Virus record (IMG/VR): IMGVR_UViG_3300037851_000941
Coordinates: 1 to 64,000 of that record
Length of the DNA stretch: 64,000 nucleotides
DNA from: a virus
Lineage: Duplodnaviria; Caudoviricetes
Strand: one strand, 5' to 3'
This document shows positions 3,094 through 52,506 of this stretch, piece after piece; the stretch's first letter is position 1, and every line of letters begins with the position of its first letter. The notes under the pieces are model-generated. The model had not been told where the DNA came from, made no database searches, and was given only the letters and a program-made list of their open reading frames with translations. A program made the translations under genes and the position numbers.

Positions 3094-3103
3094 AACGCTA
3101 CCG

Positions 3104-3802
3104 TCAGAGCTGGCGCAGCACCTCGATGTGGTCGAAGTAGGCGCGGCGCGTCACGTCGATGACCTGCATGCCGAAGCCGGCACGCCCGGAGGTGTACGGG
3201 GCACTGCCCGAGTTCACCCCGAGCGCGTCGTCAATGAACATCTCCATCCCGGGCTCCAGCACCCAGGATGGCGCGGTCACGTCCCCGCTTGCGCTGCGGT
3301 AGACCCGCAGCACGACGTCGCCGGTGCCGTTGACGATGGAGTCGAGGCGGGCATGAACCCAGTCGCCGACGGCGAACTCGGCCGTGCTCCGTAGCAGGAC
3401 CTTGTTCGTGGGCGCGTCCGGCACCAGGTCAGGCACGCCGTCCACGATGCGGCCCTTCTTCAGCACGAGGTGCGGGGGGTCGCCGTCGGACAGGCCCAGC
3501 AGGTAGCCGTAGTCGTTTACCGAGGTCCCTTGGAGCCCAAGGAACACGAGCGGTGACCAGCCCGTGTCGCCCCCACTCACGCCGCGCTGGATGGCGGCGC
3601 GGATGCTGCCACCCTCGGCCATCGGCGCATAGTTCACCTGGTTGGCGAAGAGGGCGACGGCTCCGTTGACGACGGCCAGCGAGTTGAAGCCGTAGACGAA
3701 GGAGCCCCCGCCGCCCGGTCGGGCAATCCCGGCGGTCACGCCGCGATCTACGCTCCCGATGCCCAGCGAGCCAGCAGCCACGGTCCAGTCCATCTCACTC
3801 AT
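3104..3802 (-). CDS. Putative virion structural protein (beta-rich)
   Basis: 232 aa ORF with AAAGGA RBS, inside the baseplate/fibre operon. Confidence 0.6.
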   Translation of the reverse strand: MSEMDWTVAAGSLGIGSVDRGVTAGIARPGGGGSFVYGFNSLAVVNGAVALFANQVNYAPMAEGGSIRAAIQRGVSGGDTGWSPLVFLGLQGTSVNDYGYLLGLSDGDPPHLVLKKGRIVDGVPDLVPDAPTNKVLLRSTAEFAVGDWVHARLDSIVNGTGDVVLRVYRSASGDVTAPSWVLEPGMEMFIDDALGVNSGSAPYTSGRAGFGMQVIDVTRRAYFDHIEVLRQL

Positions 3803-3820
3803 GGTTGGTCCTTTCGGTTG

Positions 3821-3829
3821 TGGTACACT
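3821..3829 (+). promoter_or_regulatory. Extended -10 promoter (TG-g-TACACT) for the HNH gene
   Basis: TGGTACACT lies 11 nt before ATG 3841. Confidence 0.5.
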
Positions 3830-3840
3830 GCCACTCCGAT

Positions 3841-4377
3841 ATGAAAACCGCCACGTATTCCGATGCGCTTCTAGCGATCAGCGAGTGCAGGTTGCGTGTG
3901 GACAGCACAAACGGCCGCATAGAGTACCGACGACCAACCCCTGGTGCCTGTTGGCGGCCTTGCGCATTGGAGATCGTTCGAGCGCCCCGCAGACGAGACC
4001 AAGGATATGTGCGAGTCACTTTTTCAAACAGCACCGGACGATTTCGCTGCCTCGTGCATCGACTCGTTTGGTTTGTCGCTCGTGGCGACATCCCAGATAG
4101 CTTGACCATCAACCACGATAACGGAAACAAGCACGACAATCGTGTCGACAATCTGAGTCTCGTTACGATGCAGGAGAACATCGACCACGCAATTTCTTGT
4201 GGCCTAACTAACCCACATGCCCCCAAAAACTGGAGCCTGCGCGCACAAGAAGTCCATGAGATCAGACGACGTGTGAGAGAAGGTGAAAGCCAGCGGTCTG
4301 TTGCAGCGTCCATGAGCATCCGTCCAAACGTGGTCAACCGAATCATTCTTGGTAAAACGTACACGTCTCTAGATTGA
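3841..4377 (+). CDS. Free-standing HNH (homing) endonuclease with C-terminal HTH-like DNA-binding domain
   Basis: VHRLVW...INHDNGNKHDNRVDNLSLVTMQENIDHA motif; opposite strand; visibly lower GC than flanks. Confidence 0.9.
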   Translation: MKTATYSDALLAISECRLRVDSTNGRIEYRRPTPGACWRPCALEIVRAPRRRDQGYVRVTFSNSTGRFRCLVHRLVWFVARGDIPDSLTINHDNGNKHDNRVDNLSLVTMQENIDHAISCGLTNPHAPKNWSLRAQEVHEIRRRVREGESQRSVAASMSIRPNVVNRIILGKTYTSLD

Positions 4378-4393
4378 TCTGTTGTCTGTCTCC

Positions 4394-30639: not shown

Positions 30640-31698
30640 TCACCAGACCCACGGCCCGCCCTGACGACTGCCCCGGCGAGTCCGTTCCTTGTCACCGCCC
30701 TTGACGGGCGGAACATCTGCCTCGGGCCGGCTGCCCTGCGGCATCGGCGTGCTGGCGATCTGTGCGACCTGCGTGCCCAGGGTGTCGAGCCGCTTCATCA
30801 GCTCGGCCAGCTCGGGCACGTCCTGCTGGATCTTCGGCCCAGCCTTGCCGTCCGTGGTGTCGCCGCCGCCACCGATGTTGCCCATCTCGGCCGCCGGCTT
30901 GGGGTCGGGCGTCTGCGGGGTGCTCTCGGCCAGGCGCTTCTCCTCGGGCACCGACGGCTCGACCTCGGAGAGGATGCGCATGAAGCGGGCAAAGGCGTCC
31001 TCGAGGGACTTGACCGCCTCCTTGTACTGGGCGAGGCGACGCACGCCGAGGCGCGCCGTCTTCTCCACGTCATCGGGCGCGACCTGCGGCTCCGGCGAGG
31101 CCGGTGCCGGGGGAGCATCGCCAGCGGCGACCAGCGCGGTGGTGAAGTCCGACACGAAGGAGCGCATCTTGGCCAGCTCGTCGACCGATGCCTTCTCGGT
31201 GCTCGTCACCTCCAGGGACAGCCTGCCCAGCGCTTCGGCCAGCTCGGCCAACCGGATGCCGATGCCGGCCGGCTGCGGCGTCGCGGCCTTCTCGGCCATG
31301 GACGTGGGCGACGGGTAGCGGCTCAGCGCACCGGTGAGCAGCTCGGCGATGGAGCGCATCTCCGACGCGAACTCCGGGGGCATCGGCTCGGCCATCTGCT
31401 CGGCCGTCTCCTCGGCCTCCTTGATCATGTTCGTGAGCGAGACGCCCCGCTCCAGCACCTCGGTCAGGACGCGCAGGACGCTCTCCTTCACGGGGGTCGG
31501 GATCGGGCCTTTCTTCGTTTCGGTGGCTGCACTCTTGTCACTCATCTGGTGTCCTCCAGCGTGTTTCGCGTCCTTGATGACGAGGAACCGTCGGCGATTG
31601 GCGGCACGGTCCACGTAGGACACCTCCTCGGGTAGGATGTCATGGAGCCGAAAACGGGCCTCCGACTCCTCCGTCTCCTTGTCCCTGTCCGTGCTCAT
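30640..31698 (-). CDS. Capsid scaffold protein whose N-terminus carries a protease-like EVSxVDxxAN strand
   Basis: Helical Ala/Glu/Pro-rich protein directly upstream of the capsid gene; RLHDILPEEVSYVDRAANRRRFLVIK near the start. Confidence 0.75.
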   Translation of the reverse strand: MSTDRDKETEESEARFRLHDILPEEVSYVDRAANRRRFLVIKDAKHAGGHQMSDKSAATETKKGPIPTPVKESVLRVLTEVLERGVSLTNMIKEAEETAEQMAEPMPPEFASEMRSIAELLTGALSRYPSPTSMAEKAATPQPAGIGIRLAELAEALGRLSLEVTSTEKASVDELAKMRSFVSDFTTALVAAGDAPPAPASPEPQVAPDDVEKTARLGVRRLAQYKEAVKSLEDAFARFMRILSEVEPSVPEEKRLAESTPQTPDPKPAAEMGNIGGGGDTTDGKAGPKIQQDVPELAELMKRLDTLGTQVAQIASTPMPQGSRPEADVPPVKGGDKERTRRGSRQGGPWVW

Positions 31699-31753: not shown

Positions 31754-34700
31754 TCACTTCGAGCGGGCAGCCCGCAGGGCCTCCTTGACCGCCGTGCCGC
31801 CGATGGAATAGCCGTCCAGAGAGCCATTCTTGACTTGCTCCCAGACCTCATCTGGGCCGGCTCGCGTAGCGAGGAACCAGGTGCCGACAGGGAAGTCCTC
31901 CCCACCGTGGCTCTCGGTCACCTTCGACACATACGACTCGAGGACCTTGATGCCGTCTAGCGGCTTGCCGGCGTGCATGATGCGCATGTGCCCGCCGAAG
32001 TGCTCCAGGAAGGCGTGGGCGGCCTTGCGCACCGTGGCCGCGTCGTAGATGTCCCCTTGCGCGTCCACCTCGTCCGGCACCAGGACGACACCGAAGACAT
32101 AACGCTCCTCGGTCTCCGGCGTCGGCTGCTCGGCTTTGAGCAGGCGCACCGGGCGCTCGGCCTTCGCCAGCGAGCCGGGCATGGACTCACCCGCGCGCAG
32201 CAGGCCCAGCACCTCCGGGATCGTGCTGGGCGGGCCGTCCACCACGTCGATGGCCTGCGCCGGGCCGAACCACGAGACGCTCCTGGGCTCCAGGGAGCGA
32301 TGTAGGAACTCCAGCGAGTAGACGCGAATCACGTCCCCGACGTCGGCGGCGAGCCTCCTGTTGCCGGTGGTGCCGATGACGACCCAGGACTTACCGTCGC
32401 GCTCCACGGTGCCCTCCCAGGCGCCATCCTCCGGGCGCACCGGGCCGATGGCGCCCACGAAGTTGTAGACGCCGGGCGAGCCCGCGACCTCGTGGCGCTC
32501 CACGACCAGCGCCCGCAGCTCGCGCACGAGCTTGACCTTGGCCCAGAGGTCATTCTCCCCGCCGAGGCTCAGCGTGGAGCCGATGGCCTTCAGCATCGCG
32601 CCCTCGCTCCCGGGCTGCCGCGCCGCCCAGTCGATGGCATCGCGCAGGCTCGGGCGATCTGCGACGACCCGGAACTCGTCCAGGCAGATGTGCTGCAGCT
32701 GGGCCTTGTGCCGCTCGATCCATCCGTTGAGCGCAGCGCGGCGTACGCTCAGGGGCGCCGTCGTGAGGTTCTTCTGGTCCGGCAGGTACAGGGCGTCGAA
32801 GACGACGAACCGCAAGCCCCGGTCGTCTGGCTCCATGCCGCGCAGGTCTGCCAGCTCGCGGCGCGGCTTGTACGCGCCCGCGTCGGCGTCCCACTCCATC
32901 ACCTCGCCGTCCAGGATGAGGTCGCCGGGCAGCGCAAGCACCTCGCGCTCCAGGCTCGGCCACCGGGCGAGGATGTTCTCCTCCGGCGAGTCCTCGGTGA
33001 AGGCCATTGCGCCGTGCTCGCCCCATCGCTGAAGCACCACGCGGAACCCGTTGAGCTTGGGCTCGACCTGCACCCCCGCCGCCACCAGCTCGTCGGTGAA
33101 CGCCTCGCGGGCAGCCGACTCCGCGTCGGAGAAGGCGGCCGTCCGGCGCGGGGCGGGCTTCGTCGGCGTGAACCGGGCCGGCGGCCGAAGCAGCTCGCGG
33201 TCGCCGCCCCTGTCATCGCCCTCCGTGCGCTCTGCGGGGTCCCACACCTGCACCTCGCCGTCCATGCGCAGGCGCTTGGTGGCGGCATCTGCCTCGGCCG
33301 GCGCCTGGGGTCCCATGGTCCAGATGGCACCGCCGGGCTCCTCGGCCCGGAACTCGTAGGTGCCCTGGAGCTTCGGGCCGCCGAAGCGCACGAGCAGCCT
33401 GCTGCCGGGCTCGTGCTCCAGCAGCTCGGCGTCGCCGCGCTCCTGGATCGTCAGACGCGACGGCGTGGCCCGCGTGGGGTTCAGCGCGATGGTGCCCACG
33501 ACGGTCCCGGGCGGCACGTCGCCGCTCAGCGCCAGCAGCTCGTCGTTGACCGCCGCATGGCGCACGGCGAGCACCTGGGCATCACTAGCCAGTGGGTCCG
33601 TCTGGAGCTGGTAGTTCCAGAGGCCGCCCTCGGGCCGACCGATGATGACGTGGAACACCTCCCGGCCCACCCCGCGCACCACGGTCTGACCCTTGAATCG
33701 CTGCCAGGACAGCGTGTACGGGACGCGGACGGGCAGCGCGACTTTCTCGGCCTCCACGAGCGCGGCGTCGTTGAGCGTCCAGTCGTCGCCGAGCGCCTCG
33801 GTGAGGCTCTTCTCGACGAGGTCGTAGTTCGAGACGAGGAGCGTCGTGAGCACCTTGGGCCCGCCGACGCCGCGCATGGAGCCGATGGTGCGGCTCGGCC
33901 GGATGCGCTTGACCCGGAAGCCCTCCTTCTCGAACCGCGCGGGCAGCTCGCCCCGTGTCCCGTAGGTCACAAGGAACTTGCCCTTGATGGACTTGAGCAG
34001 CGCGAGGAAGCGCGCCTCGTCGAAGTCCGACTCGCCGACGTCCACGTTGTAGCCGGGGTACGGCGGGTCCAGGTAGAAGGCGGTGTCCTTGCCGTCGTAC
34101 TTGCGGACGACCCGTTCGTAGTCGCCGCAGTGGATGCGGACGTTCTTCAGGCGCGGGCCGAACTTCTCGATGCGATCGACGGTCGCGGCCTCGATGCCCT
34201 CGCCCGAGGGGCTGAAGGACCGGCCGCGCAGCTTCCTGTAGGAGAAGTGGGTGACGTACAGGAACCGGTGCAGCTTCTCGACGTCGTCCTTGGGCCGGGC
34301 GTCGAACAGGCGCTTGAAGGTCGCCTCATCGCCGGTCCAGGTCATCTTGCGCAGCCGCGCCACCTGCTCGGGCTTGAGCCGCTTGATGAGCCTGTAGGCC
34401 TCGACGATCTCCGGGTCGGCGTCGTTGATGACCTCGGTCTCGGCCGGGTCCTTGGCGAAGAGCACGGCGCCGCTCCCGGCGAAGGGCTCGACGTAGGTCT
34501 TGTGGGCCGGCAGCAGCGCGACCAGCCGCTCGGCGAGCTTCTTCTTGCCGGCGGGCGAGCCCCAGATGGTCTTGTCGACCAGTGTGGCCTTGGTCCGTGG
34601 TTCCGACCCCTTCAGCACGAACTGACCAGCCTCGACGGCCACGGTGTCCGCAGTGAACAGTCGCGCGGCCACCAGGGCGTCGCGCACGGCGCGCGCCCGC

Positions 34701-37438
34701 GCCTGGTCCGGCTCCTCCCAGTAGCGATACTCGGCGGGGGTCGCGGCCATCAAGGACTCGGGCATCCCGGAGCGCCCCGGCGGCGGCATCACGCGCCGCT
34801 CCACCGAGCGACGGTCCAGCACCGACGGCAGGGCGTTCCGCGCGAAGCCGACGGTCCAGAAGACCTCGCCGGCGGGCACGCCCGGTGCCACGGGGCCGCC
34901 CTCCTCCTCATCGAGGGCGCGGTCGCCGACGAGCGCCCGGAAGACCAGGCGACCGGAGAACCGCTCGTCGCCGGTCAGGAAGTACTCGTGCGAGTAGGGC
35001 TTCTGGAGGCCCCACTCCACCGTCGGGTGCGCCACGGCCACCATCACGCCGCGCTCGTACCGCGTGGCTCCGATCTCGCCCTCGCCGAACACCTCGCCCT
35101 CCACGTCGAGCCAGCCCTTGGGCTGCCGGGACTTGGGCGCCGCCATGATGCGCTCGGGCAGCCGGAAGGGCTTGGTGTACCGGGAGCCCTCGGCGCCGAA
35201 GTCGGCGGCCACGTCGCGCGCCGCCTCCAGCGTGTCCACGTCGGGCACGACATCGGGCCTCTGGAGCATGAGCGTCCAGCCGACGAGGTAGTCGCCCACG
35301 TCGACCCGGAGGTCCCCATGCACGCTCCGTCCCCGGAAGTGCAGCTGGAGCACCCCGGGCCGGGGGCCGGGCTCCCTGGGCCAGTCGAGCATCGGGTCGT
35401 CGGCCTTGGTGGCGAGCGCCATCTGCTTGAGCGACCGGTCCTCGTGAGGCACGAGCACCAGGTCGTAGAGCTTCACGAAGCTCGTGAACGGGCCGCCCAT
35501 CGGGTCGTGGTGGTAGCTCACGCGGCGCGACAGGTCCGGCGGCAGCGCCCGGCCAAGGCGGAACTTCACGACGTGTAGCGTGTCCTCGTCGAGCGGCCCG
35601 CGCACCAGAACGTCGATGTCGTTCTTGCTCACGCCGTCGTTGCAGAGCGAGCCCACGAGGCACACCGCCGCGTCTCGCAGCCGCATGGGCTTGTCGTAGC
35701 AGGCCAGCACGTCGGGCAGGCTCACCGGCTCCAGGGCGCCGTTGCTGCCGGCATGAATGGGCGCGAACTCGCCGGTGGCCGCCTGCTTCCAGGTGGCGGT
35801 CTCCTGCGCCAGCTGGTCGTCCTCGGGCATGGAGATCTCACGCCGGGCCATCTCGCGCAGAAGGAAGGCGTGCGCGTTGATCACCTGCTCCCGGCTCGCC
35901 CCGTCCGCCTCGGCGATGCCTGTCGGGAAGGCGTCGGCGAACCAGGCGTGCATGGCGCGGTCGAGCACTCGCAGGTCCTCGTCGCTGAGCGCGGCCAGGG
36001 CCTCGTCGCTGGGGCCGGCCACGAGGGCGTCGAGCTGCGCCTCCACGCCGTCCCGGAAGACCTTGGCAAAGGGCAGCCCGAGCTGACGCGCCCGGGCGAC
36101 AGCAGTGCTCAGCTCGATGTCGGGGCCGAAGCGCCGGCCGGGCAGCGGCGCCAGCAGACGGAGCGGAGGGTCGAACTCCACCAGGAGCCGAAGGGGCATA
36201 TGGAAGAACCCGCGCACGGCGGCGAACTCCTCGAGGCTTGGCTTGTCGATGCCCGCGAGCACGGCCTCGGGCAGCGCCTCGATCCCCACGTAGGGCTCGG
36301 GCTCGCCCTGCTCGACAACCGCCCAGACGAAGGTGCCTCCGCCGTCGGGCACCTCGTTGACCAGCGCCTGCGGCTTACCCACTCTCCCCACCCGACGCAC
36401 GCGGGAGAGGAACCCGGTGGGCTGGCCGGAGCGCAGGCGGTCCAGGTTGAACGCCGGGGCGGGCAGCTTGAGGACGGGCAGGGTGCCCCGTGGGGGCTCG
36501 GCCCGCCAAACGGCCACGGCACCCTCGCGCCTGGCCCTCTCGCAGGCGGCGTCGAGCGTCATCGGGGCGCCGGCGTCCGGCGTCTGCTCAACCTCTTCGG
36601 TCTGCGCCGCGCGGCACCAGGGCCACGCCTGCTCCGGCGTCAGGCTGCGCACGGCGCCCCAGGGCAGCGCGAGCCCGTGCTGGTGCGCCCCGCTGCCCGG
36701 CAGCATCGAGCCCCCGAGCAGCGCGTGACGGTGCGGCTCGCCCTCGTCGGTGTAGTGGTCCTCGCCGTCCACGATGACGTGGTGCGAGTGCATGCCGTTC
36801 TCCTCCGTCGTGGCGGCGTCGTGCGTCGGGATCGCGTGGGCGTGGGCGCCGTCCAGAGACGTGACCACAATGCGCGGGGCCGCCTCGCCCTCCCTCGCCG
36901 GCAGAACGAAGAAGTGCCGATGGGCGCCGTCCTCGCGCGTCGAGAGCTGCTCGCGCACCAGCTCGTGGCCGTGCGCCCCGCCGGCGAGCATCCGCGCCAG
37001 CCCGGCCCCGCGCCCGAGCAACGGTGGCAGCGAGGGCCAGTGGCCCTCCTCGCCTTCCAGGAGCGCGTTGATGATGCGCGCCGCCTTGCCCGCATCCTCG
37101 GCCCACGGCGCCAGGGCGGGGTCGACAACGGCGCGCTCCCCCAGCATCTTGGCAACGCCCTCGGCCGCCGCGCCTATGTCATCAATCTGCGCGCTGTCCG
37201 ACGATTCGCCAGAGAGCTTTTCCACAGCCGAGAACAGGACGGGGAGCCCCGCCAAAGCCTCTTCCGCTTCCGGGGGCACCCGGCCCTTGAACGAGCCCAG
37301 GGCGCCCGGCAGGCGGGCGGCCAGCGCGCGGCAAACGGCCGCCACGTCGACGGGGGCGGGGGCGGGGGTCGGGCTCTGGGCTGGGGTCAGAAGCTGGCGT
37401 GCGGCCTTGATGGCGCGTTCGGCCCGTTCGATGTCCAT
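31754..37438 (-). CDS. 1894-aa multidomain head protein: HxH repeats, nucleotidyltransferase, LigD-PE-like, Dam-like N6-adenine MTase, degenerate PE-like, ATP-dependent DNA ligase, XkdF-like prohead protease
   Basis: Motifs in order: G-x-HxH x6; VGS...KNDIDVLV; LQLH...VHGDLR; YVEPFAGSGAV...FYLDPPY; EPKLNGFR/ILDGEV/FVVFDAL/EGAMLK/WAKVK; VFGVVLVPDEVDAQGD...MH...GSLDGYSIGG. Confidence 0.85.
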   Translation of the reverse strand: MDIERAERAIKAARQLLTPAQSPTPAPAPVDVAAVCRALAARLPGALGSFKGRVPPEAEEALAGLPVLFSAVEKLSGESSDSAQIDDIGAAAEGVAKMLGERAVVDPALAPWAEDAGKAARIINALLEGEEGHWPSLPPLLGRGAGLARMLAGGAHGHELVREQLSTREDGAHRHFFVLPAREGEAAPRIVVTSLDGAHAHAIPTHDAATTEENGMHSHHVIVDGEDHYTDEGEPHRHALLGGSMLPGSGAHQHGLALPWGAVRSLTPEQAWPWCRAAQTEEVEQTPDAGAPMTLDAACERARREGAVAVWRAEPPRGTLPVLKLPAPAFNLDRLRSGQPTGFLSRVRRVGRVGKPQALVNEVPDGGGTFVWAVVEQGEPEPYVGIEALPEAVLAGIDKPSLEEFAAVRGFFHMPLRLLVEFDPPLRLLAPLPGRRFGPDIELSTAVARARQLGLPFAKVFRDGVEAQLDALVAGPSDEALAALSDEDLRVLDRAMHAWFADAFPTGIAEADGASREQVINAHAFLLREMARREISMPEDDQLAQETATWKQAATGEFAPIHAGSNGALEPVSLPDVLACYDKPMRLRDAAVCLVGSLCNDGVSKNDIDVLVRGPLDEDTLHVVKFRLGRALPPDLSRRVSYHHDPMGGPFTSFVKLYDLVLVPHEDRSLKQMALATKADDPMLDWPREPGPRPGVLQLHFRGRSVHGDLRVDVGDYLVGWTLMLQRPDVVPDVDTLEAARDVAADFGAEGSRYTKPFRLPERIMAAPKSRQPKGWLDVEGEVFGEGEIGATRYERGVMVAVAHPTVEWGLQKPYSHEYFLTGDERFSGRLVFRALVGDRALDEEEGGPVAPGVPAGEVFWTVGFARNALPSVLDRRSVERRVMPPPGRSGMPESLMAATPAEYRYWEEPDQARARAVRDALVAARLFTADTVAVEAGQFVLKGSEPRTKATLVDKTIWGSPAGKKKLAERLVALLPAHKTYVEPFAGSGAVLFAKDPAETEVINDADPEIVEAYRLIKRLKPEQVARLRKMTWTGDEATFKRLFDARPKDDVEKLHRFLYVTHFSYRKLRGRSFSPSGEGIEAATVDRIEKFGPRLKNVRIHCGDYERVVRKYDGKDTAFYLDPPYPGYNVDVGESDFDEARFLALLKSIKGKFLVTYGTRGELPARFEKEGFRVKRIRPSRTIGSMRGVGGPKVLTTLLVSNYDLVEKSLTEALGDDWTLNDAALVEAEKVALPVRVPYTLSWQRFKGQTVVRGVGREVFHVIIGRPEGGLWNYQLQTDPLASDAQVLAVRHAAVNDELLALSGDVPPGTVVGTIALNPTRATPSRLTIQERGDAELLEHEPGSRLLVRFGGPKLQGTYEFRAEEPGGAIWTMGPQAPAEADAATKRLRMDGEVQVWDPAERTEGDDRGGDRELLRPPARFTPTKPAPRRTAAFSDAESAAREAFTDELVAAGVQVEPKLNGFRVVLQRWGEHGAMAFTEDSPEENILARWPSLEREVLALPGDLILDGEVMEWDADAGAYKPRRELADLRGMEPDDRGLRFVVFDALYLPDQKNLTTAPLSVRRAALNGWIERHKAQLQHICLDEFRVVADRPSLRDAIDWAARQPGSEGAMLKAIGSTLSLGGENDLWAKVKLVRELRALVVERHEVAGSPGVYNFVGAIGPVRPEDGAWEGTVERDGKSWVVIGTTGNRRLAADVGDVIRVYSLEFLHRSLEPRSVSWFGPAQAIDVVDGPPSTIPEVLGLLRAGESMPGSLAKAERPVRLLKAEQPTPETEERYVFGVVLVPDEVDAQGDIYDAATVRKAAHAFLEHFGGHMRIMHAGKPLDGIKVLESYVSKVTESHGGEDFPVGTWFLATRAGPDEVWEQVKNGSLDGYSIGGTAVKEALRAARSK

Positions 37439-37441
37439 GCG

Positions 37442-37780
37442 TCACTCTCCCTTGTCGTCCACGGTCCACGCCCGGTCGGCGGGGGCAGGCGTCCAATCTA
37501 CCCCATCCAGGGTCGCCCGTAGAGCCTTGGGCAGAACGTCCAGGGCGTGCGTGGTGGAGTAGCCGCACTCGCGCAGGAGCGTCATGAAGCGGTCGTAGAG
37601 GATGCCCGTCCTGCGGGCCACCTCGTGTTGCGTGCGCCCCATCGGGCGCGCCAGCCGGGCGTCCTCCAGGAAGCTGTCCCGCACGATGTCCGTGAACCGC
37701 ACGGCGACCCGGGTCGCCTGGATGGGGTCCCCGAGGGCGCTGACGAGGACCTCGTGCCTGCTTCTGGTAACGTGTGCCAT
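37442..37780 (-). CDS. Hypothetical protein (112 aa) upstream of the polyprotein
   Basis: ORF with a TATGCT -10-like box 8 nt upstream. Confidence 0.6.
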   Translation of the reverse strand: MAHVTRSRHEVLVSALGDPIQATRVAVRFTDIVRDSFLEDARLARPMGRTQHEVARRTGILYDRFMTLLRECGYSTTHALDVLPKALRATLDGVDWTPAPADRAWTVDDKGE

Positions 37781-42031: not shown

Positions 42032-42893
42032 TCAAGACCCGGTGGAGTCAACCGTGCCGGGAGCCTTGCTCGCCGTTCCGCGAGATGCGGACCGCGCCGT
42101 GGCCGCGCCAGCCCCATTCCTCTTCTTCGGCCTCTTGCCCTGTGGCTGTGCCCGGGCCGTGCCTGCCTGCCGCTCCTCAGTCGGCGGGGGTGCGACCTGG
42201 GCCAGCGCGACGGACAGCGCGGCAACCAGCGCGGCGCCTTTCTCATCGAAACCGGGCACGTCAGGGTTCTCTGCCAAGAACTCGAGGCCTCGATGCGCGA
42301 ACGCCCGCAGCGCGGGCTCCACTACCCGGTCCGCCGTGGCCGTGGCCACGGTCAGCTTGTAGGTCCGCACGGGCGTCACACGGCTATCAACGCGGGAGTT
42401 GGCAGGGTCCGCTGCCGCCTCCATCTCGCGCAGGTACTGCTCGGGCACCGAGATGGCATCGCGCAAGACCAACAGGTCGTCCTCCGTCAGGCCCATGGCA
42501 GGCAGGTCCTGGATCACGCCACCCGTCCAACTCCTCGATGGACGCTATCAGGGCAGCGAGCCCGTCCACGTCGAACTCGCCCTCAATCTCGTTCAGGCCC
42601 ACGTTGAGCTTCCTGACGTCGGCTGCGCCGAGGTCGTCGCGGAAGATCACCGGGACCTTCTGGTCCTTTGGGATCGCGCCGGCCTCGACCATCTCCTGCA
42701 CCGCGACCAGGCGCTGGTGTCCGCCAATCACGGTCATCGTTCCCCGCTCCACGACCATCGGGACCGTGAAGCCGAACCGCAGCAGAGAGGCCCGCAGCTC
42801 GTCCCGCTTGCGACGCGACATCCGACGCGGGTTGTAGTCGGCAGGCACCAGCTTGGACCAAGGAACCAGCTCGACCTTGTTGAACAGTCTCAC
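42032..42893 (-). pseudogene. ParB/Srx N-terminal domain protein, split by a 1-nt frameshift near 42522
   Basis: LVPADYNPRRMS...GFTVPMVV...VIGGHQRL...KLNVGLNEIEGEFD; continuation VIQDLPAMGLTEDDL is in the +1 frame after GACGGGTGGC. Confidence 0.75.
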
Positions 42894-43969
42894 GTCTCTT
42901 CTCCTTCTTCTGCGCACCCCGCGCCCGGACGCGCGCCCTCGAGCCCGTCGCGTCGCGCGACGAGCCCAACTGCCATCTTGTAGGCCTCGACCACGCGGTT
43001 CACGTTGCGGTCGGCCACGAAGAAGATGAAGCCGCGCGAGTTGCGCTGGTCATAGTACCGCTCCATCTTGGCGATGTGAACGACCGAGACAGCCGAGCGA
43101 TATGTTAGGTCCTCCAGCACGCGCCGCACGGAGAATCGGTGGCGCACGGCCAGGTCACGGACCTTCTCTGGCCTGAAGCCCCGAAAACCCGCCTGCTTGG
43201 ACACCAAGGTTATTCCATCGGCTGTTCTCTTACTCACCCGACGCTGCGTGGCCCGCGTACCGCCCAGGTGGCAGGCGAGCTTTTGACCGTCCCACAACCA
43301 CAACACCCCGTAACGCTGCACCGCCGCCAACATCGACGCATCCGCCGAGGCCCAGTCGAACGAGCGCATCAGCTCGCCGGCACCGCCTGTGCCGAGCGCG
43401 TGCAGTCGGGTCCCGTAGCGATACGCGAGCGAGTGGACGCGATGATACCAGCGCAGTCGGCGCAGGTACGCCTCGCGATTGTGCAAGAACTCCGTCTGAT
43501 TGTCCGTAGCAAGCCCAGTCCCCGAGTTCCCGACGGCGCACCAGCGATAGGCATCGCAGACCGACTCCACCTGCGCGTCGGTCATGAAGGGATGCAGGAC
43601 CGGCCAGGTCCTGCCCGCGCCCAGCGCGAGCCGGAGCGTCGCGGTGTGCCGCTTCACTATCTCGTGGTCGGACGGGTAATCGACGTCAATGGCCGCCTGC
43701 AGGAACCGACCCCAGTTCCTGGTCCTCAACCAGCCAGCATACCCTTCTACGCCGATCGCCACATTCTTCTGGCGGGCCGAGTAGACCCCGGAGTCGATCA
43801 GAAACCGGGGGACGCGCAGCCCTGCGCCCGAGAACTTCCTCGCTGCTTCCTGTGGATCGAACTGCCCGGACAGCAGCCAGTAGGACATCAGGAGGCCGCG
43901 CGCGGTCGGCTGTCCCCGATCAGCCGACCGCGCCGAGGCGATGCCAGTGCTCTGCGATGACTCGATCAC
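42890..43969 (-). CDS. tRNA-guanine-transglycosylase-like (DpdA-like) TIM-barrel protein
   Basis: FLIDSGVYSA, AIDVD, WPVLHP, LHALG and SADAS match the spacing of TGT catalytic motifs; sits beside que/fol genes. Confidence 0.65.
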   Translation of the reverse strand: MIESSQSTGIASARSADRGQPTARGLLMSYWLLSGQFDPQEAARKFSGAGLRVPRFLIDSGVYSARQKNVAIGVEGYAGWLRTRNWGRFLQAAIDVDYPSDHEIVKRHTATLRLALGAGRTWPVLHPFMTDAQVESVCDAYRWCAVGNSGTGLATDNQTEFLHNREAYLRRLRWYHRVHSLAYRYGTRLHALGTGGAGELMRSFDWASADASMLAAVQRYGVLWLWDGQKLACHLGGTRATQRRVSKRTADGITLVSKQAGFRGFRPEKVRDLAVRHRFSVRRVLEDLTYRSAVSVVHIAKMERYYDQRNSRGFIFFVADRNVNRVVEAYKMAVGLVARRDGLEGARPGAGCAEEGEET

Positions 43970-44942
43970 CTGCCCTCACTCCTTCCCCCGTGGCACCAGA
44001 TCCGTCGTGCCACACTCCGACGGGGTCAACAGCGTACCCGGACAAGACCCGACCGATGGCCCCGACCATGTCCTCAACAGTGTCGACCTCGGCGAAGCAC
44101 CCTTCCGCGAACAGCTCCGGGTAGCTGAGGCGGCGCGGCACGATCACCCGGCACCCCATCTGGGCGGCCTCGACCATCGCGATGCCGAACGTCTCCTGGA
44201 GGGCGGCAGAGACGCACAGGTAGGCGGACCCGAGGAGGGCGTGATACTCCGCCTTGGAGCCGGTGGCCTCGAGCGTCTCGACGAACCGCCAACCCGGCCA
44301 CGACGGTCGCAGCTGATCGACGGCCGCGCGCCAGATCCACGTCTGCTTCTCGGGCACCGCGCGGTGGGGCCAGACCACCAGCCGCTCTCGGCGACCTCCC
44401 CGCGCGGTCGGCGCCATCCTGACCGGCAGCGGGCTCACGGTCACGCGTTCGACGGGCAGCCCAGCCGAGGCCAGAAGCGTGCGGTGGTACCGGGTGGCGA
44501 CCACCGCGTCGTCCAGCGATCGCAGCACAGAGTCCTCGAACCCACGCGCCCACGCGCCGCAGCCGGCCTGGGCGAGGCGGTCGTGGGGGTCGTAGGTGCC
44601 GGCGTGCAGGATGCCGACCAGGCGCAGCGGCAGACCCGCCACATCGCGCATGTACGCGGCAGAGATCACCCCGGGATGCCAAGCATCGAGGAACACGACC
44701 GTGCTCGGCACGCCAGCGCGAGCCGCCGCCACCAACATCTCGACCTGGGCCGCCTTGTAGGCGTGCGTCTGCAGCGGGTCCAGGAACTGCTCCGCAGACA
44801 GGCTGCCCGAGCCCACGTCCGGGTGAAGCACGCCGACGTCGAACCCCGCCGCCGACAACGCGGCCGGCCACCACTCGAGCCACTGCGCCGTGTATCGCTG
44901 CTCGATGGGCTCGATGGGGAGCAGGAGGCAGCGGGCTCTCAC
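43920..44942 (-). CDS. GT-B fold glycosyltransferase
   Basis: PIEPIEQRYT, ILHAGTYDPHD, VVWPHRAVPEK, QETFGIAMVEA (E-x7-E), PRRLSYPELF. Confidence 0.85.
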   Translation of the reverse strand: MRARCLLLPIEPIEQRYTAQWLEWWPAALSAAGFDVGVLHPDVGSGSLSAEQFLDPLQTHAYKAAQVEMLVAAARAGVPSTVVFLDAWHPGVISAAYMRDVAGLPLRLVGILHAGTYDPHDRLAQAGCGAWARGFEDSVLRSLDDAVVATRYHRTLLASAGLPVERVTVSPLPVRMAPTARGGRRERLVVWPHRAVPEKQTWIWRAAVDQLRPSWPGWRFVETLEATGSKAEYHALLGSAYLCVSAALQETFGIAMVEAAQMGCRVIVPRRLSYPELFAEGCFAEVDTVEDMVGAIGRVLSGYAVDPVGVWHDGSGATGEGVRAGDRVIAEHWHRLGAVG

Positions 44943-45298
44943 GCTACCTCGGCGGCAAGGGCGACGCGGGCGCCGTTCTCACCGTCCTCGTCAACCTCGA
45001 CCGTGGCCCAGCCGAGGCCGTACCTTCCGATCATCTGCTCAGCGAGCTGGCCAGCCAGGGCCTCACATGACATCGCCCCAAGCTCGCCGCCCGGCCAGGT
45101 ATCGGCAACGTGCCGCGACAGCTCCCTCTTCGTTGTAATGAACTCTATGTCGCGGTCGACGTGCGACACTGGAACCTCCACCCTCACATTGAACAGGTGG
45201 CGGTGGCGGCTGGAGAGGAACCCGCACCACTCGGGTGCCTCGGGCCAGCGGTGAAAGCCCTCGAACGAGAAGGTGAACCAGACGCTGGTGCGCTTCAC
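44939..45298 (-). CDS. QueD/PTPS-like T-fold protein (second, divergent copy)
   Basis: GTG start overlapping the upstream stop; EGFHRWP...RHRHLF...DRDIEF...SCEALA...VDEDGENGA. Confidence 0.7.
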   Translation of the reverse strand: MKRTSVWFTFSFEGFHRWPEAPEWCGFLSSRHRHLFNVRVEVPVSHVDRDIEFITTKRELSRHVADTWPGGELGAMSCEALAGQLAEQMIGRYGLGWATVEVDEDGENGARVALAAEVA

Positions 45299-45969
45299 AG
45301 CGCTCTCCTCTCTCCGTCGTAGTCGCCCCAGTCCAGAGGGGAGTCGAAGACGTAGCCCGCGCACCGGCGGCAGAGGTCCAGGCTGCCTGTGGCCTCCACA
45401 TCGTTGCAGCACAGCGCGACCGAGCCGTCCCAGCACACCGCCCGCCACCCGTCAACGAGGAACGAGCACCGCGCCGACCGCGAGAGGTCCTCGCCCTCCA
45501 CATCGACGAAGCCTGCATACGACTGCAGCTCCTTCTTCGGCGCGTCGCTCTTGACCAGCAGCCGGTGCTCGGTCGCCAGCAGCGAAGGTGGAATCGAGAA
45601 CGTCGACAAACGCACGCCGAACGGGTCGGTGTGCAGTCGGAGATAGGACAGTCCGGCGTCCACCAGCGCGTTCAGCCGCTCCTGGGTCAGGCCCCGACCG
45701 TGCGTCGAGAACCCGACGGTGAAGCCGCGACCGGACGCCATGGACACGAGGCGCTCCAGCCCACGGTGCAGGAGCGGCTCCCCGAAGTGGTGCATCGACA
45801 TCACGCGGTTCGTTGCCACGTCCAGGACGCAGGAGAAGGTCTCCCCCGTGATGAACCCGCGCTTCCGCTGGTGCCGCGAGTGCGGGCAGTATGAGCAGCG
45901 GGCGTCGCAGTGGTTGGTCACCTCGACCTGGTACACCTTCAGCGCGGACGTGTCCCAGACCGAGGTCAT
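45295..45969 (-). CDS. Radical SAM protein with short SPASM/twitch-like C-terminus
   Basis: EVTNHCDARCSYCP (CxxxCxxC), HHFGEPLLH, VCWDGSVALCCND...CRRC. Confidence 0.85.
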   Translation of the reverse strand: MTSVWDTSALKVYQVEVTNHCDARCSYCPHSRHQRKRGFITGETFSCVLDVATNRVMSMHHFGEPLLHRGLERLVSMASGRGFTVGFSTHGRGLTQERLNALVDAGLSYLRLHTDPFGVRLSTFSIPPSLLATEHRLLVKSDAPKKELQSYAGFVDVEGEDLSRSARCSFLVDGWRAVCWDGSVALCCNDVEATGSLDLCRRCAGYVFDSPLDWGDYDGERRAL

Positions 45970-46433
45970 CGCAGCACCGCATCTTCCAGGTAATCCTGCG
46001 GCCTGGTGCGCCAGCCGGACCCCACGCGGAAGGTTACGATGTTGTACGGCGCCCCCACCGACACGAGGTCGTCTGGCCGGAGCAGGTCAAGGACAGAATC
46101 GTGTGCCCGTAGCCTCGCCACCACCACTGCCCCGCGCACGAGTGATGCTGCAGTCGTGGCCGCCAGCACGTCCTCCTTGTTGGTGGCATCGCACTCGATC
46201 GTGCATGGCATACGATGCAACTCCAGCCAGGGCGCGAGCGTGTCGCGGAACCAGGCCCAGTCACGCAGCGTGTCGCGCACGAAGACGTGCCCCACCCTTG
46301 CCACCTCCAGCACCGCCGGGGCCACCGGCGAGGAGATCATCGCCGTCTGGACGCGCCACGGCGCCATCGGCCCCTCGACCTCCGGGCCGCGCCACGATGA
46401 GCCCGGGGTCATGATGCCGCGCGGGTGCGTCAT
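45966..46433 (-). CDS. Unknown protein coupled to folE and the radical SAM gene
   Basis: 155 aa, ATGA overlaps on both sides. Confidence 0.6.
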   Translation of the reverse strand: MTHPRGIMTPGSSWRGPEVEGPMAPWRVQTAMISSPVAPAVLEVARVGHVFVRDTLRDWAWFRDTLAPWLELHRMPCTIECDATNKEDVLAATTAASLVRGAVVVARLRAHDSVLDLLRPDDLVSVGAPYNIVTFRVGSGWRTRPQDYLEDAVLR

Positions 46434-47008
46434 CTACCCAGCACCTTCAGCGCCTCGGCCCGCGCCGCAGCGTCCTCCCTCATGCTGCCGAAGAAGACCG
46501 TCGTGACCATCTCCCCCGTCGACTCGACGCCGCGCAAGCACATGCACGAGTGGACAGCCCGGACGATGACCCCGAGACCGACTGGGCAGAGCCCTTCCTG
46601 CAGCGTCCAGGCCACCTGCGCTGCGATCCTCTCCTGGACCTGGAGCCGCCGAGTGATGGCCCGGACGATGCGCGGGATCTTCGAGAGCCCGACGATTTTC
46701 CCGCTCGGGATGTACGCCACCGAGACGGTCCCGGTGAAAGGCAGGACGTGGTGCTCGCAGAGGGAGGCGAACGGGATGTCCTTGACCGCGACCATCGCGT
46801 CGCCCTCGCTCTCGAAGGTCACCAGCAACGAGCGCGGGTCCACCTCGTAGCCCGAGGTCAACTCCTGCATCGCCTTGGCCAGCCGCCGTGGCGTGTTCAC
46901 GAGCCCTTCCCGGGCCAGGTCTTCCCGACCGCCCAGCAACGCGGCCATGAACCCTCCTGCCGCATCCTGCAAGCCTGGCAAAGGGCGCTCGCTGTCAACG
47001 TGAACCAT
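46430..47008 (-). CDS. folE: GTP cyclohydrolase I
   Basis: REGLVNTPRR, SLCEHHVLPF, GLSKIPR, RRLQVQER, HSCMCLRGV. Confidence 0.96.
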   Translation of the reverse strand: MVHVDSERPLPGLQDAAGGFMAALLGGREDLAREGLVNTPRRLAKAMQELTSGYEVDPRSLLVTFESEGDAMVAVKDIPFASLCEHHVLPFTGTVSVAYIPSGKIVGLSKIPRIVRAITRRLQVQERIAAQVAWTLQEGLCPVGLGVIVRAVHSCMCLRGVESTGEMVTTVFFGSMREDAAARAEALKVLGR

Positions 47009-47026
47009 GTCGCAATCCTCCTCTCG

Positions 47027-47726
47027 TTACCGAAGACCGAGCGCCTTGTGCATCTGGACCGACAGCCGCCAGCCCGGGTGCCCAAAGACGTAGTTGACCG
47101 CCGCGCCCAACACCGAGGGCTCCACGGACAGCGAGCCGTCGCACGTCGGGCAGGCGGGGGGGGGAGACGTAGAGCCGCGCGAAGCCCCCGAGGGCCGCCG
47201 CGTACTCGTGCGGGGCCGGCAGCCCGGAAGGGTACACGACCTTTAGCTCGTTCCCCGACCGAACCGCCACCCTCTCGGGCGCCGTCTTCGGGGACACGCA
47301 GACCCAGTCAACGCCCGCGGCCTCCGCAGAGCCGTCCCTGAACTGGACCGTCCCGTTCGTCTCCACGGCGATCGTGAGCCGCTGCCCGTCGCAGGCCGCG
47401 CGGATGGCATCGGTCAGGCGGCGGTCGAGCTGCAGCAGCGGCTCCCCGCCCGTGATCACGAGCAGCCCCTCGGGCCCGGGACAGGTGGCGCCGAGGTGCG
47501 CGACCTCCCGTGCGACCTCGTCGACGGCGCGGCCCCGTCGGGCAGAAACAAAGTCCGTGTCGCACCAGCGCGGGCAGTCGGCCCCGGCCCGGGAGGCGTC
47601 GCGTTCGCGGTCGGCATCGCGCCCGCTCCACAGGTTACAGCCGGCCAGGCGCAGGAACACGGCCGGCCGCCCAGCATTGGCACCTTCGCCCTGCAGCGAG
47701 CGAAAGATCTCCTGGACCGCGTACAC
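47027..47726 (-). pseudogene. queE: 7-carboxy-7-deazaguanine synthase, frameshifted in a C9 tract (47156-47164)
   Basis: EIFRSLQGEG...FLRLAGCNLW...CPRWCDTDF...ITGGEPLLQ...ETNGT; the canonical tail HPGWRLSVQMHKALG appears only in the +1 frame after the C run. Confidence 0.9.
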
Positions 47727-47730
47727 GGTC

Positions 47731-48183
47731 CTACGCCTCGACCGTGGCGCAGCACTGCGGGGTCTCCCAGATCGTGACCCGGGAGACCCGGAGACCGCCC
47801 CCGTCATCCGCGCGCTCCAGCAGCGAGCGGGCCACGTCCAGCAAGGCGGCGGCCATCAACTCGGCCGTCGGCTCACCGTCGAGGCAGTATGGCGGGCGAT
47901 GCCCGCTCTGCTCCTCGTCCTCTTGGCACTAACGCAGGAGGCGCTCGTCGGCTCGGTTGACCAGGGTGGTGTGGTCCCAGTGGGAGTCGATCCACTGCCC
48001 GACCCTCGCCTTGATCTCTCCGAAGTCGATCACGCGCCCGCACCCGTCCAGCCGCTCGGCCGTACACGCGATCTCGGCACGGTATCGATGGCCGTGCAGC
48101 GTCGAGCACTTCGACTCGTGCCGCAGAACGCGGTGGGCAGAGTCCCACTCGAAGACCCTCGTGACGGTCGTCTGGTTCCCCAT
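47731..48183 (-). pseudogene. queD: 6-carboxytetrahydropterin synthase with in-frame TAG at 47929-47931
   Basis: WDSAHRV...CSTLHGHRY...VIDFGEIK...WDH; beyond TAG the same frame gives EPTAELMA...VTIWETPQCCATV. Confidence 0.9.
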
Positions 48184-50853: not shown

Positions 50854-52506
50854 CTATGCCTGGGCGATGAGACGACCCCGGGGGCTGCCGCCCAGGGCGC
50901 CCAGCGGGTTCGCCAGCGCGGGGGCTACCGGGGCGTCCTCGTGCTGCCCCGTCCCGTTGCCGGCGTGGCTCCTGGCGGCGCGGCGCTCCCGGCGGCGCAG
51001 GCTGCGGCGCACCCGGCGGGCCAGCTCACGAGCGAACCAGGAGGCCATGAGGCGGTCGCCGGTGTGGGCACCCGGCTCGTAGCGGAGCATCTCGCAGAGC
51101 CACTCACGGACATCCTCGTCGCACTCCCCATGCACCGCGTCGCCGTGGCACCTGGCGCCGACGTTCGGCACGATCCAGCGGGCGGCCTCCATCTCGGCCG
51201 CCAGCGACTCGACGCCGAAGGACGGGTCGGCCTTGTTCCGGCCGGTCGTGAAGCGCGCCACCGGCAGCGTCACCTCCAGCTCGCGGGCGAACTGCACGAT
51301 GAAGTCCTGCGCCGCGTTGTTCTCCACGATGAACATGCCGCCGAAGGCGTCGTGCGTGCCCTCCATGCGGGTCAGGATCTCCCGGCCCTTCCAGCGACCG
51401 CCCTGGACGCGGATCACCTGGCGGTCGTCGTTCGGGTGAACGAACACGGAGAAGATGGTGGACACGTCGTTGTGCGCCAGCAGCCCGACGCCGAGGTCGA
51501 CGCCGTGGACCACGAACGAACCGGGCGGCAGCTCGTCGGGCAGCTCCTGGTAGGTCGGCACGCCGTCGCCCCTGAGCAGGCAGCCGTCCAGCCACTCGCC
51601 CCGGAACCGCCGGGCGGCCTCGTCGTAGGGCAGCAGCTCCATCTGGCGCCGGTACTCCAGCTCGCCGAAGTCCACCCGCTTCTCGGCCAGGCGCTCCGGG
51701 GGCCAGCGTCGCTCGTCCACTATCCTACCGTCCGCACTAACGATCGGGCACCGCTCGGTGGCCCAGCCGTCGCGCTCCAGCTCGTGCGCCAGGTCGTCGG
51801 GGTGCCAGGCGTTCGTCAGGAACATGACCTCGGCGCGCCTCGTGAGCCGGGAGAACAGCGTGGCGCGCACCCACTTGCTCACCGCCTCGCGCTGGGCGGC
51901 CGTCGCGGTGTTGTCGGCGTCCAGGATGTCGTCGAGCACCAGGATGTCGATGCGCGACCCCTGGATTGCACCGTGCAATCCGACCGCCTGCACGGTCGGG
52001 TCCCTGGTGAACACGCGCTCGCGCTGGATCACGATCTCGTTGTCGGCCCACTTCGGGCCGGGCAGCAGGTGCGGGTAGACCTCCCGCAGCTCGGCGCTCC
52101 GCTCGATCAGGCCCTTGAGCGCGCCGAGGGTCTTTTTTGCCTGCTTCTCGGTGTCGCTGACGATGGCCACGCGCAGCGTCGGGTCCTGGCCCAGCCGCCA
52201 GAGGACGCGACCGACGGCGAGCTGGCTCGACTTGCCGCTCTCCGGGAAGGCCCAGAGCACGAGGCGAGAGTGCCTCATCGCCATCTGCTGCCACCGCTCG
52301 TGATGCGGCAGCTGCACTAAGGGTTCGGCCGTCTCCTCGTCGCGGAGCACGTGCTCGACGAAGGTGCTGGGATCGGTGCGCGCCAGCGCCAGGCGCTGCA
52401 GGCGCAGCTCGGACCAGACCTCGCCCATGTCCACGCCGGCCTCGAGGTCGGGTGGCAGCGGGGCCGGCGTGGGCAGGGTGGCGTCAGCTCGCCGACGACG
52501 CGCCAC
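50854..52506 (-). CDS. terL: Terminase large subunit
   Basis: Walker A-like AFPESGKSS, GSRIDILVLDD (Walker B), TNAWHPDDL, nuclease GVDLGVG...D, VENNAAQ, HTGDRLMASWFA. Confidence 0.95.
   Translation of the reverse strand: MARRRRADATLPTPAPLPPDLEAGVDMGEVWSELRLQRLALARTDPSTFVEHVLRDEETAEPLVQLPHHERWQQMAMRHSRLVLWAFPESGKSSQLAVGRVLWRLGQDPTLRVAIVSDTEKQAKKTLGALKGLIERSAELREVYPHLLPGPKWADNEIVIQRERVFTRDPTVQAVGLHGAIQGSRIDILVLDDILDADNTATAAQREAVSKWVRATLFSRLTRRAEVMFLTNAWHPDDLAHELERDGWATERCPIVSADGRIVDERRWPPERLAEKRVDFGELEYRRQMELLPYDEAARRFRGEWLDGCLLRGDGVPTYQELPDELPPGSFVVHGVDLGVGLLAHNDVSTIFSVFVHPNDDRQVIRVQGGRWKGREILTRMEGTHDAFGGMFIVENNAAQDFIVQFARELEVTLPVARFTTGRNKADPSFGVESLAAEMEAARWIVPNVGARCHGDAVHGECDEDVREWLCEMLRYEPGAHTGDRLMASWFARELARRVRRSLRRRERRAARSHAGNGTGQHEDAPVAPALANPLGALGGSPRGRLIAQA

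Follow-up and report, generated by a model that had tools for sequence, protein, structure and literature searches.

What a tailed phage gains by joining a DNA ligase, an adenine methyltransferase and a head-maturation protease in one chain is the question raised by a gene of the IMG/VR virus record IMGVR_UViG_3300037851_000941 (Duplodnaviria; Caudoviricetes), of which positions 1 to 64,000, referred to here as the window, were analysed. The source contig is a 77.8-kb linear viral record, ~74% complete according to CheckV and 70% GC, and the open reading frame (ORF) listing exhibits on the minus strand, at 31754-37438 of the window, a single frame of 1,894 codons without a stop, whose GC content at third codon positions (GC3) of 0.93 is like that of the other genes of the contig. 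The gene order on this strand is portal, MuF, small gene, 1,894-amino-acid (aa) ORF, scaffold and capsid, and the frame, the GC3 and this order bear out the first-pass annotation, which had placed a stop-free 1894-aa ORF in the prohead-protease slot. The probable product of the ORF is a cargo polyprotein, directed to the capsid and self-processing, in which the head-maturation protease serves as the base of a polyvalent protein. The features of the locus are collected in Table 1.

The C-terminal end of the chain is an XkdF-type protease, observed by Pfam as Peptidase_S78_2/XkdF at residues 1775-1886 (E 1e-24, 87 bits against a cut-off of 24, model positions 9-125 of 126; residue numbers are positions in the 1,894-aa ORF) and scoring 93 bits in a six-frame search of the contig. 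The candidate catalytic residues D1792, H1822 and S1878 correspond to columns without variation across 84 diverse XkdF proteins, and these columns together with the Pfam match support the XkdF-like protease earlier proposed for 1777-1894. Six-frame and profile searches found no S78, ClpP or second XkdF domain on the contig; the XkdF domain is the sole prohead-protease-type domain there, and the polyprotein must therefore supply head maturation. Searched exhaustively with HMMER, the XkdF domain by itself recovered 5,443 representatives, and in the best 150, which were examined, XkdF almost always closes the protein at its very C terminus, over lengths of 127-2,087 aa (median 494). The N-terminal parts of the 84 XkdF proteins contain, by Pfam, a D12 methyltransferase (MTase) in ten cases, a ligase in five, InPase in three and Tad3 in one, and most of them have no Pfam match, so that the XkdF proteins with variable N-terminal cargo that the first-pass annotation had suggested looking for do occur among these best 150 of 5,443. 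In one relative, P0046, cargo and XkdF are continued in the same chain by the EEVSLVDRAANKHRFLIVK motif and an acidic scaffold, and its tail matches the window scaffold (E 5e-8).

The scaffold gene of the window begins with EEVSYVDRAANRRRFLVIK, followed by an acidic, helical remainder; the motif of this opening is [EV]VS-x-VD-x-AAN-x-x-x-F-h-h-x-K. The VS-x-VD motif is located after XkdF in P0046 (residues ~830-850, past a linker) and before XkdF in gp33 of Lactococcus phage 28201 (L004:3896-4945); a role in docking or cleavage is the likelier one, since its position is not fixed. The possibility that EVSYVDRAAN is a split-off strand of the protease fold was rejected, as its position relative to the protease varies. 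Bare XkdF proteases of 139-349 aa are annotated as 'DNA methyltransferase' in many Pseudomonas and Lactococcus phage records (e.g., L005: PAK_P3 gp3, 2919-3335), a label probably carried over from the annotation of MTase-XkdF fusions.

A word-indexed search recovered 47 relatives of 1,050-2,370 aa, nearly all ending in XkdF, which keep the segment order of the window protein: a domain at ~300-470, a nucleotidyltransferase (NTase), a first and a second LigD-type phosphoesterase fold (PE1 and PE2), a ligase and XkdF. Zero to three MTases occur per relative at differing positions; extra cargo was observed in some, such as C5-MTases, inteins, a 2H/LigT phosphoesterase (P0034) and Tad3 (P0038, E 8.5e-8); and a second architecture of ~1,050-1,100 aa consists of two or three MTases and XkdF. 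In ~50 of 59 related IMG/VR loci the XkdF gene is preceded by portal and/or MuF and followed by scaffold/capsid, the others being contig fragments or unfused forms, and the scaffold-like gene is syntenic in most. A single open frame covers both XkdF and the NTase/PE1 match in 35 of the 42 loci where this could be checked, and the cargo across the loci ranges from the full set down to PE1 alone. The nearest cellular record is a Myxococcales metagenome-assembled genome.

The middle of the chain holds a set of end-processing domains. Pfam gave no match even at E 10 for segments 1-560, 540-960 and 1210-1400; these were therefore aligned to homologues, and two structures were predicted, for residues 540-960 (predicted local distance difference test, pLDDT, 83.7) and 1210-1400 (pLDDT 84.2). 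The NTase fold (~587-661, ~75 residues) matched six MNT-type structures by VIA over ~70 residues at Z 5.8-4.4, namely 1no5 (5.8), 8xeh MNT (5.5), 2rff (4.8), 1wot (4.6), 7ae2 and 1ylq, and by Foldseek it matched 8xeh (prob 0.97); its motif VGS-x9-DID at 595-609 has G596, D607 and D609 invariant among 22 aligned family members. The structural scores alone are modest, and together with the GS..DxD motif they give moderate confirmation of the pol-beta-type nucleotidyltransferase that had been proposed. The PE1 barrel (692-866) matched 3p4h at VIA Z 13.7 (root-mean-square deviation 2.0, 117 of 118 residues) and 3n9b at Z 12.2, and Foldseek matched 3p43, 3n9d, 3p4h, 3n9b, 5dmp and 2lj6 at 1.6e-5 to 5e-3, with 3p43 the best. 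H700, R702, G703, H707, D709, R711, E818 and Y819 are invariant in the same 22 members, and the ligands are those which we take, by motif, to be the counterparts of H42, H48, D50 and R52 of PaeLigD. For the LigD 3'-phosphoesterase-like domain that had been drawn at 680-930, both the fold and the site hold, but this range also contains a separate module at ~870-945. Inteins with Hint and LAGLIDADG domains split PE1 at GEVGA|C... in the relatives P0043 and P0044, and insertion at this conserved site suggests that PE1 is functionally important and strongly constrained.

The PE2 barrel (1238-1378) gave VIA Z 16.3 to 3p4h (116 of 118 residues) and 14.2 to 3n9b, the next match being 4.5, and a Foldseek value of 1.4e-5; unrelated next-best structures for both PE1 and PE2 are below Z 6. 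PE2 has conserved motifs of its own, SWQxFKGQTVVR and LNxTKATPS. It reads SWQRFKGQTVVR..FHVII, with no His-x-Asp-x-Arg and no His or Asp among its invariant residues, so that the H..HxDxR metal/phosphate site is intact in PE1 only. PE2 is probably no second phosphoesterase, because the metal and phosphate ligands are absent, and this agrees with the degenerate second PE-like domain described earlier; it would probably act as a non-catalytic binder of DNA ends or nicks. Compared with PDB sequences as single queries, PE1 and PE2 returned noise only (e.g., DHFR, apolipoprotein). The ligase core was observed by Pfam as DNA_ligase_A_M at 1450-1636 (E 5e-16), with motifs I, III, IIIa, IV and V present (K1461 in KLNG, LDGE, FDALY, EGAMLK and WAKVK). 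The family profile searched against PDB matched archaeal/eukaryotic Lig1-type enzymes at 1e-15 and Mycobacterium tuberculosis (Mtb) LigD at 1e-8, and no RNA ligase. The earlier claim of an ATP-dependent ligase with an OB domain thus stands for the core, while at ~1640-1760 neither Pfam nor the family-profile search matched an OB domain. The boundaries of the first-pass annotation were correct within ~10-20 residues. Stand-alone proteins of NTase, PE and ligase without XkdF are present in the archaeal virus ANMV-1 and among several metagenomic proteins, which supports the view that these three domains are one functional unit.

A different history is seen for the methyltransferase. Pfam placed MethyltransfD12 at 964-1156 (E 3e-21, 76.9 bits against a cut-off of 22), the PDB matches are Dam and DpnM, and both FAGSG at 986-990 (SAM motif FxGxG) and the catalytic DPPY at 1124-1127 are present, in line with the Dam/D12-type N6-adenine MTase that had been read at 957-1210. 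It sits between PE1 and PE2. The MTase-coding DNA at 33761-34580 of the window (minus strand; residues 954-1225) shares 93.4% identity over 818 nt with L002:10861-11678, which belongs to another XkdF polyprotein, encoded by a Myxococcota prophage and containing three MTase copies, and the flanks have no similarity; the closest relative of the window protein, P0002, has no MTase at all. Whole cassettes therefore move, with ends at junction motifs, and the nucleotide identity indicates that the domain was exchanged recently between phages whose hosts are probably of one lineage. The MTase, which the first-pass annotation had listed within the repair and protection toolkit, is thus a recently acquired cassette and does not belong to the core of that set.

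The N-terminal region is made of recurring elements. The pattern (D/E)R-h-xx-A-h-xx-A opens many cargo-XkdF proteins regardless of the next domain; a loose regular expression for it matched 14 of 48 family members and 15 of 120 other XkdF proteins against a background of 0.5%, and the leader helix is a candidate capsid-targeting or docking signal. The HxH repeats noticed in the first reading were found as six GxHxH repeats at 154-254 in a conserved module, with 12 His invariant in 17 diverged proteins. Arrays of at least 3 HxH units occur in 32 of the 122 nearest C-terminal-XkdF proteins and in 9 of 48 family members, and in 0 of 170 shuffled controls; the module has no Pfam match, and the HxH-XkdF profile found no relative in PDB. 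By eye, the HxH units bear some resemblance to the VS-x-VD motif of the scaffold ([ST]-x-x-D-[GR]-A-[HA]), which may hint at kinship. In many short leader-HxH-XkdF proteins a further motif, EDGK[WY]CV...G..LGCY.T.EEAE.RL.Q, lies between the leader and HxH (A4 members P0064, P0073, P0066, P0099, P0091 and P0085) and is absent from the window protein. The ~300-470 domain also occurs alone with XkdF in short proteins, e.g., P0086, and searches of Pfam and the ESM Atlas with the window protein and P0086 returned nothing usable (scores <=0.82). The motif of the ~875-945 module also opens several XkdF proteins of ~350 aa.

Between these modules a hydrophobic-x-Lys motif recurs. It was observed in ..VEK|TIWGSPAGKK before MTases, in ..VEK|QP..TLSWQ before PE2, in ..LAK|QDDP before PE1, in ..RLLK|A..EERYV before XkdF and in FLVIK|D in the scaffold. 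In the 22 aa that precede a domain start, the triplet [VILMFA][ED]K was counted at 30 of 37 MTase starts and at 13 of 28 PE2 starts, for which inspection shows a Lys in a near-fixed position, and a hydrophobic-hydrophobic/acidic-Lys triplet lies upstream of 37 of 39 XkdF starts, the background in random windows of the same proteins being 8% and 16%. The motif may mark cleavage sites, for which K74, K943 or K956, K1210, K1232 and K1768 are the candidates in the 1,894-aa ORF. The MTase copies are mutually homologous, so their shared motif could be inherited; the junction argument rests on the recurrence of the motif before non-homologous domains.

Taken as a capsid-directed cargo polyprotein, the late-made chain would co-assemble into the procapsid through protease/scaffold interaction and/or the leader, and XkdF would digest the scaffold and cut the chain at the hydrophobic-x-Lys junctions; part of the freed enzymes would be retained in the head and exit with the DNA. 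Their work in the next host would be the trimming of 3' ends, the addition of nucleotides and the sealing of the genome, whether by making it circular or by mending breaks that host nucleases had introduced, while the MTase would methylate GATC-type sites. Such a division of labour would follow a LigD-like logic, with the NTase for nucleotide addition, PE for 3'-end trimming and the ligase for sealing; eukaryotic non-homologous end joining (NHEJ) also uses polymerases of the pol-beta superfamily. The HxH module may be a six-fold metal-binding-like module. DNA is presumably the substrate throughout, and action of the cargo before any phage gene expression, as the first-pass annotation imagined it, would be pure conjecture. 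The cargo (D12 MTase, ligase, InPase, Tad3, 2H) is the counter-defence domain vocabulary of polyvalent proteins as described in Iyer 2017 (PMC5512222). The notion of the protease fusion as a packaging tag is consistent with the conserved slot, the sole protease, P0046, the variety of the cargo with Tad3 among it and the junction motif, but the general idea has already been published.

Several observations weigh against this reading. A chain of 205 kDa at the normal copy number of a protease would crowd the head, and therefore a low copy number or the loss of most cargo has to be assumed. No Ku (PF02735) was found on the contig, which at ~74% completeness leaves room for Ku elsewhere or for host Ku, and no cultured phage with a cargo-XkdF or HxH-XkdF fusion was found in a collection of 50,697 records. 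Ligase motif I is KxNG and not KxDG, with the Asn nearly invariant in the family, and the x-x-K before XkdF falls inside the edge of the Pfam model and may be structural. In addition, DNA of the producer cell would already be methylated by a late MTase, which weakens the need for an injected one. This last point belongs equally to an alternative which we consider unlikely on balance, namely that the enzymes act in the producer cell or procapsid, where they would methylate DNA and seal nicks or gaps around packaging, and are then degraded or expelled with the scaffold, with no injection. On this view the fusion would tie the late production of modification and repair enzymes to head assembly. 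The place of the gene in a late head operon, the limited head room for 205-kDa chains and the fact that a late MTase would protect progeny DNA without injection all fit such a role, and the recombination/replication genes and the DNA-hypermodification cluster of this phage may leave nicks to be sealed. It accounts less well for Tad3 in relatives, an inhibitor of the Thoeris sensor ThsB that would seem most useful early, at the stage of infection in which Thoeris detects the phage, for the InPase and 2H domains, which are typical of injected polyvalent proteins (Iyer 2017, PMC5512222), and for the fusion itself, as joining a cytoplasmic enzyme to an obligate procapsid protein is an odd route.

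Delivery by the capsid is kept, and the substrate changed, in a second alternative that appears improbable, according to which NTase, PE and ligase repair RNA, such as host tRNAs cut by anticodon nucleases or HEPN RNases, in the manner of T4 Pnkp/Rnl1, or the NTase AMPylates and thereby neutralises a HEPN toxin of the host. The LigD PE removes 3'-phosphates and 3'-ribonucleotides. The best structural matches of the NTase include the MNT antitoxins of HEPN-MNT pairs (8xeh, 7ae2, 1no5), P0034 adds a 2H/LigT phosphoesterase, a type acting on 2',3'-cyclic phosphates, and the atypical KxNG motif could be taken in the same sense. Against an RNA or toxin role, however, the ligase profile matches DNA ligases and no RNA ligase, Pfam scans of the ORF found no 5'-kinase domain, and the co-resident Dam-type MTase acts on DNA. 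That the long ORF is an artefact, whether of mis-assembly, of an overlooked frameshift or of a frame open by chance, as 70% GC yields long spurious frames such as the opposite-strand 1,028-aa frame that overlaps it at 32492-35578, is effectively refuted by its GC3, by same-order homologues of each segment in the 47 long proteins from separate samples and by XkdF in frame with upstream NTase/PE1 domains at 35 independent IMG/VR loci, which also excludes the mis-assembly that the first-pass annotation had named as a threat to its claim.

A broader proposition, which we advance tentatively and with less than even confidence, is that the C-terminal XkdF fusion is a general cargo-loading system of uncultured tailed phages, in which the leader (often with HxH) and the protease would bracket exchangeable cassettes that are cut at hydrophobic-x-Lys and injected. 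If true, the N-terminal parts of thousands of XkdF-terminated proteins would form a catalogue of injected early effectors, among them a viral end-joining machine, complete in itself (NTase, PE, inactive PE and ligase), that would seal or circularise the genome without host enzymes. The XkdF-cargo system is notable mainly as widespread, modular and directly testable. If the cargo is packed and injected, it would offer a simple covalent route for loading arbitrary enzymes through a protease that enters every procapsid, and with it a natural design for phage heads loaded with foreign proteins; the domains fused to XkdF, which include one proven Thoeris inhibitor (Tad3) and mostly lack a known fold, would become a searchable list of first-minute effectors. 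The same condition would make the window protein a virus-borne, Ku-less end-joining kit in which a pol-beta NTase replaces the AEP polymerase, which is relevant to the survival of incoming linear genomes in the face of exonucleases and restriction. If the enzymes act in the producer cell only, the ORF would still be an unusual coupling of head assembly to DNA finishing.

Unrelated catalytic domains in one chain, a portal/MuF head neighbourhood and variable architecture in its relatives are features that the ORF shares with polyvalent proteins. The polyvalent proteins of Iyer 2017 likewise have many enzymatic domains per chain, lie beside portal and MuF genes and are predicted to travel inside the capsid and enter the cell with the DNA; MTases, pol-beta NTases, 2H and InPase are the domain types they share with the ORF or its relatives, and a prohead-type, assemblin-like peptidase is 'always at the C termini' of some of them (PMC5512222). 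Differences are also observed. The anchor here is XkdF (Peptidase_S78_2), which is not named in that paper, nor are an HxH module or a leader helix described in it; its three mentions of 'ligase' are RNA ligases and LigD is absent from it, so that a DNA ligase and a LigD-type PE are seemingly outside its domains (PMC5512222). A later paper by the same group holds XkdF to be unrelated to the SH/S77 prohead peptidases (PMC7824862). An incomplete literature search, which did not extend to the supplementary architectures of Iyer 2017, found no description of XkdF-anchored cargo, of the HxH module or of a capsid-linked LigD-like set. The first-pass annotation did not recognise this architecture as characterised, which holds for the XkdF-anchored LigD-like toolkit but not for a C-terminal prohead peptidase on polyvalent proteins, published in Iyer 2017 (PMC5512222).

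Like bacterial LigD (POL + PE + LIG), the ORF joins an ATP-dependent ligase to a PE, whose fold and H..HxDxR site are common to the two, and both hold a nucleotide-adding domain in the ligase chain. The ORF differs in having a minimal pol-beta NTase of ~100 aa and no AEP primase-polymerase that Pfam could find, a second, non-catalytic PE fold, a different domain order and KxNG as motif I, in lacking Ku on the contig, and in the fusion of the whole set to a capsid protease; it is LigD-like in content and not a LigD, because the AEP domain was not found. Enzymes or inhibitors loaded into the head and injected to protect DNA have precedents in P1 DarB/Dar and the T4 internal proteins (IPI*, Alt), which are processed or targeted by the assembly machinery; the T4 proteins carry a capsid-targeting sequence, and P1 DarB contains an MTase domain. 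These are separate gene products, recruited by head proteins or by an N-terminal peptide that the protease removes, whereas in the ORF the cargo and the protease form one covalent chain. Ordinary XkdF genes (Lactococcus phage 28201 gp33; PAK_P3 gp3 with gp4) have the same protease domain in the same slot, and their phages share with the window the VSxVDxxAN...hhxK motif and an acidic scaffold; in cultured phages, however, XkdF is a cargo-free protein of 139-349 aa, either bare (PAK_P3 gp3, 139 aa) or N-terminal to the scaffold (28201 gp33, 349 aa). Mycobacteriophages need NHEJ, with their own Ku and the host LigD, for successful infection, and the title of Pitcher 2006 attributes this need to genome circularisation (Pitcher 2006, as cited in PMC7719229). 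On the same account, Omega and Corndog bring Ku and borrow the host LigD, whereas the phage of the window would bring ligase, PE and NTase without Ku.

Table 1. Domains of the 1,894-aa ORF and neighbouring genes, with coordinates in the window and residues (res) of the ORF in brackets.
Feature	Coordinates	Strand	Basis
XkdF-type (Peptidase_S78_2) prohead serine protease (res 1769-1894), after RLLK|A	31757..32134	-	Pfam
Post-ligase region, presumed OB domain (res ~1640-1760)	32159..32521	-	conserved in family
ATP-dependent DNA ligase nucleotidyltransferase domain (res ~1397-1640)	32519..33250	-	Pfam, family profile, motifs
LigD-PE fold domain 2, PE2 (res ~1233-1385)	33284..33742	-	conserved motifs, VIA, Foldseek
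D12-class (Dam-like) N6-adenine DNA methyltransferase (res 957-1210)	33809..34570	-	Pfam, PDB matches
Small conserved module (res ~875-945), LPSVL..R.V....MPPxGxSxxP...YRYW...RDALV, end FVLK|G	34604..34816	-	model pLDDT >90
LigD-type 3'-phosphoesterase domain 1, PE1 (res ~690-875)	34814..35371	-	invariant site residues, VIA, Foldseek
Helical lead-in (res ~470-575) and minimal pol-beta-type nucleotidyltransferase (res ~575-680)	35399..36031	-	invariant motif, VIA, Foldseek
Conserved domain (res ~300-470), AEPPxGxLPxLKxPxPxF ... GRRFG	36029..36541	-	in most family members
HxH-repeat module (res 150-262), six T-x-x-D-G-x-H-x-H-x-L units, end SLTPEQAW	36653..36991	-	alignment
Amphipathic leader helix (res 1-17); leader region to ~res 74 (AVEK)	37388..37438	-	recurring pattern
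Major capsid protein, 310 aa	29653..30585	-	phrog_1623, E 1.5e-81, and major head protein PHROGs
Scaffold-like gene, 352 aa, ATG 31698	30640..31698	-	ribosome-binding site, GC3, match to P0046 C-terminal part
Small conserved gene, 112 aa, between MuF and polyprotein	37442..37780	-	position conserved across most related loci
MuF-like minor head / head morphogenesis protein, 581 aa	37811..39556	-	PHROGs 595, 115, 2841, 241
Portal protein, 609 aa	39453..41282	-	phrog_12, E 1.6e-37
TerL	50854-52506	-	

The scaffold gene starts 56 nt past the stop of the polyprotein, behind a GGAG-type site. A programmed frameshift from the polyprotein into the scaffold was dropped as an explanation of their arrangement, given the scaffold frame of +1, a GC3 of 0.66-0.76 in the overlap and the good ribosome-binding site and ATG at 31698. 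Upstream of the portal, the minus strand at 42890-48183 carries a cluster of a TGT/DpdA-like protein (phrog_887, E 3e-10), a GT1-family glycosyltransferase and two radical-SAM proteins, which suggests a 7-deazaguanine-type DNA hypermodification, possibly glycosylated. Past the window, at 63.8-74 kb of the contig, genes for a Sak4-like annealing protein, an exonuclease and a sliding-clamp-like protein were observed (L007:797-2362, 3635-4861 and 9814-10962), indicating that the phage owns a recombination/replication module.

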